From Escherichia coli (GTDB lineage: Bacteria; Pseudomonadota; Gammaproteobacteria; Enterobacterales; Enterobacteriaceae), in NCBI RefSeq assembly GCF_003334255.1, contig NZ_QOWU01000016.1: a stretch of 64,000 nucleotides of DNA; one strand, 5' to 3'. The notes beneath the pieces are model-generated. The model did no database searches. It had not been told where the DNA came from and saw nothing but the letters and a program-made list of their open reading frames with translations. Both the position numbers and the translations under genes were made by a program. Below, one piece after another: positions 11,160 to 52,217 of this stretch. Numbering within the stretch: position 1 is the first letter of the stretch; every line of letters begins with the position of its first letter.

Positions 11160-11927
11160 TTATAGCGCCAGAACCGCCGTATTCAGCGTTTCTATCGGTG
11201 CCGGGCGTGAAAGAAACCAGCCTTGTGCGGCGAATGCGGGCGAGTTCTGAACATCACGCCACTCTTCCGGCGTTTCTACGCCCTCGACAATCACCCCGCG
11301 ACAATAGCGATTCATTAGATGTAAAAGCTGAGAAAAGAGTGTGCGTCCTTCCGGCGACTGACGCAGCATCACAAACAGTTCTCGCGCGATTTTGATGTAG
11401 TCATAACGCACTTCACTTAGCGCAGAGAAATTTGCCATCCCGGTACCAAAATCATCCAGCCACAGCGGGCCAAATTCACACATCGAGGCAAAGGTTGAAT
11501 CTTTCGGCAGACGGATATGCTCCACCAGTTCGAAACGCAGCCAGGGAAGACGCTCAATCTGGCGCAGGATTTTTGGTTGCTGACGCAGGGCGATGAGCGT
11601 AGGGCCATCAATATTGACCGATGCCAGCAGGCCGTGCTCTATAAAGAAGTCGGCTTTTTGCGCCAGCAAATCAATCTGCTCTTTCACAACCTCCATCCGA
11701 TGGCTGACGGTGATTTCAGTAAAATAGCGATCCGGCGGCAGGCGTTGCGAAGGGTTCAAGGGATGCGTGACCACCGTTAATAGCTCCACGGCCATTAACC
11801 GCCCGCATGTTTGATAGATCGGCTGCCAGGTGTAAGCACGCTCACACTGCAACCAAAAACGCCGTTCCTGCAAGCTCTCGATGCTTGCTTCAGGGTTGCT
11901 TATTCGCTGGATAACCTGCCTTATCAT
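11160..11927 (-). CDS. pdeH: c-di-GMP phosphodiesterase, stand-alone EAL domain (255 aa)
   Basis: EAL-domain ORF with ELL motif (MAVELLTVV); start at MIRQVIQR (ATG 11927) rather than ORF-track start 11972. Confidence 0.88.
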   Translation of the reverse strand: MIRQVIQRISNPEASIESLQERRFWLQCERAYTWQPIYQTCGRLMAVELLTVVTHPLNPSQRLPPDRYFTEITVSHRMEVVKEQIDLLAQKADFFIEHGLLASVNIDGPTLIALRQQPKILRQIERLPWLRFELVEHIRLPKDSTFASMCEFGPLWLDDFGTGMANFSALSEVRYDYIKIARELFVMLRQSPEGRTLFSQLLHLMNRYCRGVIVEGVETPEEWRDVQNSPAFAAQGWFLSRPAPIETLNTAVLAL

Positions 11928-12073
11928 CAAAGATGTCCTGTGTTTAAAAGTGATGCTGCCCGGACTCGACAAAGATTATCGGCGCGTAAGGGCAGAACTT
12001 TACCGCCTGGCCGGGGTAAATTTCCTCACTCCACAACGGAATCTTTCAGGAATACGTTCTGGCTCAAAAAAAT

Positions 12074-12092
12074 AATGGAACACTGTTTTAAT
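12074..12092 (+). promoter_or_regulatory. putative KdgR operator upstream of kdgK
   Basis: aatggaaca-c-tgttttaat is an imperfect palindrome close to the KdgR box consensus AATGAAACA-N-TGTTTCATT as I recall it, about 70 bp upstream of kdgK ATG. Confidence 0.55.
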
Positions 12093-12158
12093 ATGGTTGA
12101 CCAGCAAACCACCACAGCGCAAACTAACGCTAATTTTTTACAGATCAGGTTCACGACT

Positions 12159-13088
12159 ATGTCCAAAAAGATTGCCGTGATTGGCGAATGCATGATTGAG
12201 CTTTCCGAGAAAGGCGCGGACGTTAAGCGCGGTTTCGGCGGCGATACCCTGAACACTTCCGTCTATATCGCCCGTCAGGTCGATCCTGCGGCATTAACCG
12301 TTCATTACGTAACGGCGCTGGGAACGGACAGTTTTAGCCAGCAGATGCTGGACGCCTGGCACGGCGAGAACGTTGATACTTCCCTGACCCAACGGATGGA
12401 AAACCGTCTGCCGGGCCTTTACTACATTGAAACCGACAGCACCGGCGAGCGTACGTTCTACTACTGGCGGAACGAAGCCGCCGCCAAATTCTGGCTGGAG
12501 AGTGAGCAGTCTGCGGCGATTTGCGAAGAGCTGGCGAATTTCGATTATCTCTACCTGAGCGGGATTAGCCTGGCGATCTTAAGCCCGACCAGCCGCGAAA
12601 AGCTGCTTTCCCTGCTGCGCGAATGCCGCGCCAACGGCGGAAAAGTGATTTTCGACAATAACTATCGTCCGCGCCTGTGGGCCAGCAAAGAAGAGACACA
12701 GCAGGTGTACCAACAAATGCTGGAATGCACGGATATCGCCTTCCTGACGCTGGACGACGAAGACGCGCTGTGGGGTCAACAGCCGGTGGAAGACGTCATT
12801 GCGCGCACCCATAACGCGGGCGTGAAAGAAGTGGTGGTGAAACGCGGGGCGGATTCTTGCCTGGTGTCCATTGCTGGCGAAGGGTTAGTGGATGTTCCGG
12901 CGGTGAAACTGCCGAAAGAAAAAGTGATCGATACCACCGCAGCTGGCGACTCTTTCAGTGCCGGTTATCTGGCGGTACGTCTGACAGGCGGCAGCGCGGA
13001 AGACGCGGCGAAACGTGGGCACCTGACCGCAAGTACCGTTATTCAGTATCGCGGCGCGATTATCCCGCGTGAGGCGATGCCAGCGTAA
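12159..13088 (+). CDS. kdgK: 2-dehydro-3-deoxygluconokinase (309 aa), PfkB/ribokinase family
   Basis: Start at MSKKIAVIGECMIEL (ATG 12159); PfkB C-terminal motif DTTAAGDSFSAGYL; the ORF-track 425-aa version is an upstream over-extension overlapping pdeH. Confidence 0.9.
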   Translation: MSKKIAVIGECMIELSEKGADVKRGFGGDTLNTSVYIARQVDPAALTVHYVTALGTDSFSQQMLDAWHGENVDTSLTQRMENRLPGLYYIETDSTGERTFYYWRNEAAAKFWLESEQSAAICEELANFDYLYLSGISLAILSPTSREKLLSLLRECRANGGKVIFDNNYRPRLWASKEETQQVYQQMLECTDIAFLTLDDEDALWGQQPVEDVIARTHNAGVKEVVVKRGADSCLVSIAGEGLVDVPAVKLPKEKVIDTTAAGDSFSAGYLAVRLTGGSAEDAAKRGHLTASTVIQYRGAIIPREAMPA

Positions 13089-51784: not shown

Positions 51785-52217
51785 TTTCTTACTCCTTTCA
51801 CCCAAAAAAAGCGCACAACGACACACGCGTGTCTGACGTGACAAGGATAGTCCAGGACAGGCTTGCAGGATACCCTTTCTACGTAATCTTCCTGGTAAAA
51901 TCATGGAGAAAATGAAACAAGGTTAATTTGTTGTTTCATTGTTAAAAAATGATAGTGCCGTTGCCTTTTTTGTAGCCAGAGATTTACGCCTTCGCAGAAG
52001 GTTAGATTTTCGAAATCTTTACAAAACAGGAGTGGTAAGAGATATATCGGCATTTATCAGATCGTTAGGTGGCTATAAGTCACGCTAAATGACAGGCTGA
52101 ATCGAATCATAGCCAGAGCATGCCCTGACTTCACCCCGCTGTGTCTGCTTTTCCCGACTATTCTTAATGAGCTTCGATGCAATTCACGATCCCGCAGTGT
52201 GATTTGAGGAGTTTTCA

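Follow-up and report, generated by a model that had tools for sequence, protein, structure and literature searches.

A conserved near-palindrome upstream of kdgK as the probable operator of the repressor KdgR in Escherichia coli

The pdeH-kdgK Locus

The stretch of DNA analyzed here (64 kb, hereafter the window) belongs to the chromosome of Escherichia coli and carries, according to the annotation of the E. coli record, the genes yhjG, pdeH, kdgK, yhjJ, and dctA in this order. The pdeH coding sequence (11160-11927) is on the minus strand with its start-codon end at 11927, and kdgK (12159-13088 in both the annotation and the table of open reading frames), which encodes the 2-dehydro-3-deoxygluconokinase of 309 amino acids, is on the plus strand with an annotated ATG at 12159. 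The divergent spacer between the two genes is 231 bp long and contains the near-palindrome aatggaacactgttttaat, whose position at 12074-12092 is exact by direct reading of the sequence (AATGGAACA-C-TGTTTTAAT, the same letters as quoted in a previous sequence-only reading of this DNA). That reading had placed the element between the divergent pdeH and kdgK and inside an over-extended frame of kdgK, and the coordinates agree on both points, since the element lies between 11927 and 12159 and within a TTG-initiated frame of 425 amino acids (11811-13088) that is a mechanical upstream extension of kdgK. A distance of 76 nt separates the center of the element from the kdgK ATG.

Of 5426 complete E. 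coli genomes, 5422 contain a match to the segment 11900-12200, annotated there as pdeH at one end and kdgK at the opposite end. The 100 nt preceding the kdgK ATG are fully identical to those of K-12 MG1655, in which this ATG is located at 3,679,419. The offset between the MG1655 and window coordinates amounts to 3,667,260 at kdgK (12159) and to 3,668,710 at wecH (57177). Because these offsets differ, about 1.45 kb present in MG1655 must be missing from the window between kdgK and wecH, possibly an insertion sequence.

Resemblance to the KdgR Motif

Considered as a bare palindrome, the element is complementary at six of nine arm positions, and at least six pairing positions occur at 716 of the 63,982 positions of the window (1.1%). 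Such pairing being common, palindromy was rejected as evidence. The consensus of the KdgR operator, as quoted in PMC5559549 from Rodionov (2000/2004), is AAATGAAACAnTGTTTCATTT, and its inner 19 nt are the very consensus that the sequence-only reading had used. The 21-mer at 12073-12093 (TAATGGAACACTGTTTTAATA, hereafter the kdgK box), which includes the 19-mer at 12074-12092, is identical to this consensus at 15 of the 20 specified positions. A search with the degenerate pattern AATGRAACANTGTTTYATT, allowing up to three mismatches, returned the kdgK box as the sole site of the 64-kb window against 0.26 expected; this search lists a site once per strand, and two or more matches arose in 4 of 100 shuffles. 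However, two unrelated 21-mers of the window, at 58518-58538 within the coding sequence of yiaA and at 51910-51930, also agree with the consensus at 15 of 20 positions, and the raw count of identities was rejected as a test for this reason.

Since raw identity discriminates poorly, a position weight matrix (PWM) was built. It was symmetrized and derived from four other boxes of E. coli K-12, with the kdgK site excluded, namely those of kdgT (AAATAAAACAGCGTTTCAATT), kduI (first box AAATAAAACAATGTTTCATTT, second box TAGTGAAACACTGTTTCGTTT), and tabA, also named yjgK (AAATGAAACGTTGTTTTAATT), all of them located upstream of genes that are reported in the literature as KdgR targets or as genes with a KdgR box. 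The kdgK box reaches 21.4 bits. The training sites score 26-33 bits, and the highest-scoring 21-mer outside these sites, out of 121.5 kb of E. coli sequence, attains 13.0 bits. The two 21-mers that equal it in raw identity score 13.0 bits (58518-58538) and 9.6 bits (51910-51930), and both were treated as chance matches. The exact score distribution gives a p-value of 3.4e-8 per position, so that 0.002 sites are expected in the window and about 0.16 in a genome of 4.64 Mb. This p-value is rough because the matrix has only four sites, themselves chosen by their similarity to the consensus. Similarly, in a comparison made without any seed, the 17-mer of the spacer that is best common to the upstream regions of kdgT, kduI, and tabA was 12074-12090, with 43 of 51 matches, whereas 200 shuffled spacers yielded 35.1 ± 1.3 and never more than 42. 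The match to the KdgR motif exceeds chance.

The kdgK box has in common with the four other boxes the dyad T(G/A)AAAC-N3-GTTT(C/T)A and A/T-rich flanks, and the genes that these boxes precede are reported to be derepressed upon mutation of kdgR. The tabA box also contains the right half-site GTTTTA. On the contrary, the kdgK box differs from its siblings by a G in place of A in TGGAAC and, on its right side, by the absence of the AAAT/ATTT outer arms. The distance to the start codon varies among the E. coli boxes, from -25 to -130.

Conservation in Enterobacteriaceae

Conservation was assessed with one KdgK-based scan of species-representative genomes, from which the 80 closest loci of Enterobacteriaceae were taken (KdgK identity 86-100%; Escherichia, Citrobacter, Salmonella, Enterobacter, Klebsiella, Kluyvera, Kosakonia, Lelliottia, and others), the more distant kdgK loci of Dickeya and Yersinia being outside this set. 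In all 80 loci, the kdgK box was the top PWM match of the whole locus of about 7 kb, and its center was always found 74-78 nt ahead of the kdgK ATG.

The motif GGAAC-NNN-GTTTTA was found without exception in the 81 sequences, and the half-site columns were invariant (11 of 11), although such columns do not count as independent events given that the 80 loci are related. The left half-site, TGGAAC at 12076-12081, corresponds to TGAAAC in the consensus, and the right one, GTTTTA at 12085-12090, to GTTTCA. Between them, the central triplet (ACT at 12082-12084 in the window) took 11 different values among the 81 sequences, its mean major-allele frequency being 0.745; ACT, AGC, and GGC all occur within E. 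coli. By comparison, the third codon positions of kdgK in the same loci are invariant in 5.5% of cases and have a mean major-allele frequency of 0.70. The triplet thus looks neutral, apparently drifting like third codon positions. Fixed half-sites around a free spacer are the signature expected from a dimeric helix-turn-helix protein, unlike that of a promoter hexamer or of a chance sequence.

Indeed, one could argue that the element is a chance near-palindrome devoid of function, as its arms pair at a level commonly encountered in the window and as two other 21-mers equal its identity to the consensus. This reading is contradicted by the far lower PWM scores of both 21-mers, by the invariance of the half-sites across 80 species while the neighboring spacer and the third codon positions drift, and by the location upstream of a known KdgR-regulated gene; its probability is close to nil and it can be regarded as effectively refuted already. 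The resemblance to a KdgR operator claimed in the sequence-only reading is therefore upheld by consensus, PWM score, and half-site invariance together, and the check that it had proposed, a comparison of the PWM score with the background in which a low score would count against the claim, left the claim standing.

The G at 12078, which replaces the A of the consensus in TGGAAC, is itself invariant in 81 of 81 sequences of Enterobacteriaceae and occurs in none of the four other E. coli boxes. A TGG is also found in a weak candidate site inside edd, upstream of eda (TATTGGACCGGTGTTTCAAAA, L083:4096-4116, on the eda strand).

The Predicted kdgK Promoter

The hexamer TTGACC (12097-12102 in the window) occurs in 80 of 81 sequences, invariably 6 nt past GTTTTA, and is followed 17 nt downstream by CAnACT or CAAAAT, again in 80 of 81 sequences (CAAACT at 12120-12125 in the window, CACACT in most relatives). 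The spacing from the box to both hexamers is constant in 81 of 81 sequences, the 17 nt between them are unconserved, and insertions or deletions are confined to the interval between the second hexamer and the ATG, which measures 31-37 nt. We infer from this pattern that TTGACC-N17-CAAACT is the sigma-70 promoter of kdgK, with a predicted start near 12132. A strict promoter scan gave no match in this region, which can be explained by the weakness of the -10 hexamer. An alternative -10 hexamer, GCTAAT at 12129-12134, was rejected as it has no conserved -35 hexamer 16-18 nt upstream. No entry for a kdgK transcription start was found in the supplements of five genome-wide studies of transcription starts and operons (PMC4782308, PMC4161252, PMC3415461, PMC2760140, and PMC6131387), and the promoter is for that reason given here as a predicted one.

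Relative to this predicted promoter, the 21-bp box would extend from about -59 to about -39, with 3 nt separating it from the -35 hexamer. On its pdeH side lies an A-tract (GGCTCAAAAAAATA at 12062-12075; GGCTCAAAAAAATAA when taken as 12062-12076) with high column conservation, about equal to that of the box flanks, which could be an extended arm of the operator or a promoter-upstream element. The conserved block at about -59 to -39 might instead of a repressor site be a promoter element with an incidental likeness to a KdgR operator. It could act as an AT-rich, UP-like element upstream of TTGACC-N17-CAAACT, or a second promoter could use TGtTTTAAT (12084-12092) as its extended -10. Its position is the usual one of UP elements, TGtTTTAAT does look like an extended -10, and the A-tract next to the box is conserved to the same degree as the box. 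However, a promoter element would not leave just three central bases free between a fixed pentamer and hexamer related by dyad symmetry; TTTAAT lacks the nearly essential A at its second position and the scan gave no sigma-70 pair there; and kdgT, kduI, and tabA are preceded by this dyad as well, at differing distances from their promoters. We consider this explanation very unlikely.

Regulation by KdgR

The gene kdgK has been included in the KdgR regulon since the 1970s, and its repression by KdgR is textbook knowledge. The KdgR box of kdgK is likewise already known and is an ordinary regulatory element: the kdgK promoter was described as a KdgR target bearing a KdgR box (PMC6958661, citing Rodionov 2000/2004), and the amount of kdgK mRNA increases in a ΔkdgR mutant of E. 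coli, as seen by Northern blot (PMC6958661). Similarly, a deletion of 39 genes including kdgR leads to the overexpression of kdgK and kdgT (PMC6892915). In Salmonella Typhimurium, no kdgK expression is detected unless 2-keto-3-deoxygluconate (KDG) is present, which induces the gene strongly, and a ΔkdgR mutant expresses kdgK constitutively (PMC4784465); the Salmonella locus of our set (L024) exhibits the same box in the same geometry. No gel shift (EMSA), footprint, or ChIP of KdgR on E. coli kdgK DNA was found in the literature examined, and a search for the box sequence in the full texts of papers returned no match.

Judged on its sequence, the kdgK site displays every property by which a KdgR box is recognized, that is, a fit to the consensus and to the PWM far above background, a place in the regulatory DNA of a member of the KDG and pectin catabolic regulon, and conservation in orthologous upstream regions with constrained half-sites and a free spacer. 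The near-palindrome is thus very probably the operator through which KdgR, a repressor of the IclR family, controls the kdgK promoter. In the absence of inducer, KdgR would sit on the half-sites TGGAAC and GTTTTA, on either side of a 3-nt spacer that it would not contact. Given the position of the box at about -59 to -39, 3 nt before the -35 hexamer, the bound repressor would prevent the RNA polymerase from making its contacts at -35 and further upstream, and kdgK would stay silent. The accumulation of KDG would then release KdgR and allow the transcription of kdgK. The motif match, with its specificity, conservation, and geometry, is a result of this analysis, and the regulatory phenotype comes from published work, whereas both the binding of KdgR to the exact sequence 12073-12093 and the steric mode of repression are inferred. 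Some features speak against a KdgR operator: none of the four other E. coli boxes scores as low or carries the G of TGGAAC, and the center of this box near -49 is upstream of the -35 hexamer, whereas the classic position of a repressor is over the -10 hexamer or the +1.

The KdgR operators of Dickeya were reportedly footprinted by Nasser and colleagues in 1994. The operators controlling pectinolysis in Dickeya dadantii (Erwinia chrysanthemi) share with those of E. coli the consensus AAATGAAACAnTGTTTCATTT, the family of the regulator, and KDG as inducer (PMC5559549), and kdgK is a predicted member of the KdgR regulon in Dickeya as well (PMC6127512). On the contrary, E. coli has no pectinases, and its regulon is for this reason limited to downstream catabolism.

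What is added here to a known box is a clean phylogenetic footprint, with invariant half-sites, a free spacer of 3 nt, and a fixed spacing to the predicted -35 and -10 hexamers, as well as the fact that the weakest KdgR box of E. coli departs from the consensus in a conserved manner. Such details could guide the engineering of operator affinity or of KdgR biosensors, but they carry little weight beyond annotation and raise no new question.

Apart from these sites, a weak PWM match of 11 bits (AATCAGAACTGTTTTTTATTA, L087:6130-6150) is located in the kdgR-yebQ spacer of K-12, upstream of kdgR, and could be a hint of autoregulation or a product of chance.

PlaR and Other Regulators of the IclR Family

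The kdgK box might also be, mainly or to an equal degree, an operator of PlaR (YiaJ), a paralogous repressor of the IclR family that would regulate kdgK together with KdgR through one shared site. The PlaR box, ATnTGAAACnnnGTTCAnTT, is a nearly identical dyad, kdgK is among the targets obtained by genomic SELEX, gel shifts are reported for the high-affinity targets, and co-regulation with KdgR was proposed by the same authors (PMC6958661). Furthermore, KdgR and PlaR are 34% identical and have similar recognition helices (KSTVYRFLQ and KSTVHRLLQ). Compared by hand with the PlaR consensus ATnTGAAACnnnGTT(T)CAnTT, the kdgK site agrees at 11 of 16 specified positions, a consensus that at this resolution is indistinguishable from that of KdgR. 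However, the list of genes with increased expression in the plaR mutant comprises yiaK, kduD, eda, glpA, and glpT, and kdgK is named only among those that go up in the kdgR mutant; in addition, PlaR was used in vitro at micromolar concentrations, and the text of this study does not give the nucleotides contacted by PlaR in the pdeH-kdgK spacer (PMC6958661). The two repressors also differ in their signals, PlaR responding to ascorbate and galacturonate, with yiaK as its main target. The binding of PlaR to the pdeH-kdgK spacer is thus documented in vitro and its co-occupancy with KdgR is possible, but we hold it somewhat unlikely that PlaR is the main or an equal user of the box.

A further extension of KdgR control would make of the kdgK box a sub-optimal operator of dual specificity for KdgR and PlaR, in which the invariant non-consensus G and the rigid 6-nt offset from the -35 hexamer would have been selected, and in which repression would proceed upstream of -35, through the blocking of contacts by the alpha-CTD and sigma region 4, and not through coverage of -10 or +1. 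We regard this proposal as unlikely. If true, it would imply a lower induction threshold for the kinase gene kdgK than for the transporter gene kdgT, which could matter because KDPG, the product of the kinase, is toxic when it accumulates (PMC4784465).

The operators of IclR and AllR (TGGAAATNATTTCCA and TTGGAAWAWTWTTCCAA, respectively) are also A/T-rich palindromes bound by proteins of the same family (PMC8222616). The left half-site of the kdgK box, TGGAA, happens to resemble the IclR/AllR half-site, whereas the spacing and the right half differ, and no evidence for an action of IclR or AllR at kdgK was encountered.

The Divergent Gene pdeH

The location of the box in a shared divergent spacer is the sole argument in favor of a control of pdeH, alone or along with kdgK, which would tie c-di-GMP and motility to the availability of KDG. 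On the contrary, pdeH has a conserved promoter of the sigma-28 type of its own on the minus strand (12002-11976). The sequence TAAAGTTC-N11-GCCGATAA at 11976-12002 of this strand departs by one mismatch from the consensus of sigma-28 (FliA) promoters, is the unique match of this kind in the window (0.06 expected), and has both of its elements conserved in the 80 closest loci. Situated about 40 nt ahead of the pdeH (yhjH) ATG, it presumably serves this gene as a class-3 flagellar promoter. The center of the box is some 81 bp upstream of the -35 edge of this promoter, with a poorly conserved stretch (approximately 12004-12048) in between, and the literature examined reports no effect of KdgR on pdeH. 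An action of the box on pdeH therefore appears highly improbable.

As for CRP, the only match in the spacer (12015-12030) has three mismatches and lies in unconserved sequence, and it was rejected as a CRP site. The sequence TGTAAGCACGCTCACA at 11831-11846 fits the CRP core TGTGA-N6-TCACA with a single mismatch but is located within the pdeH coding sequence.
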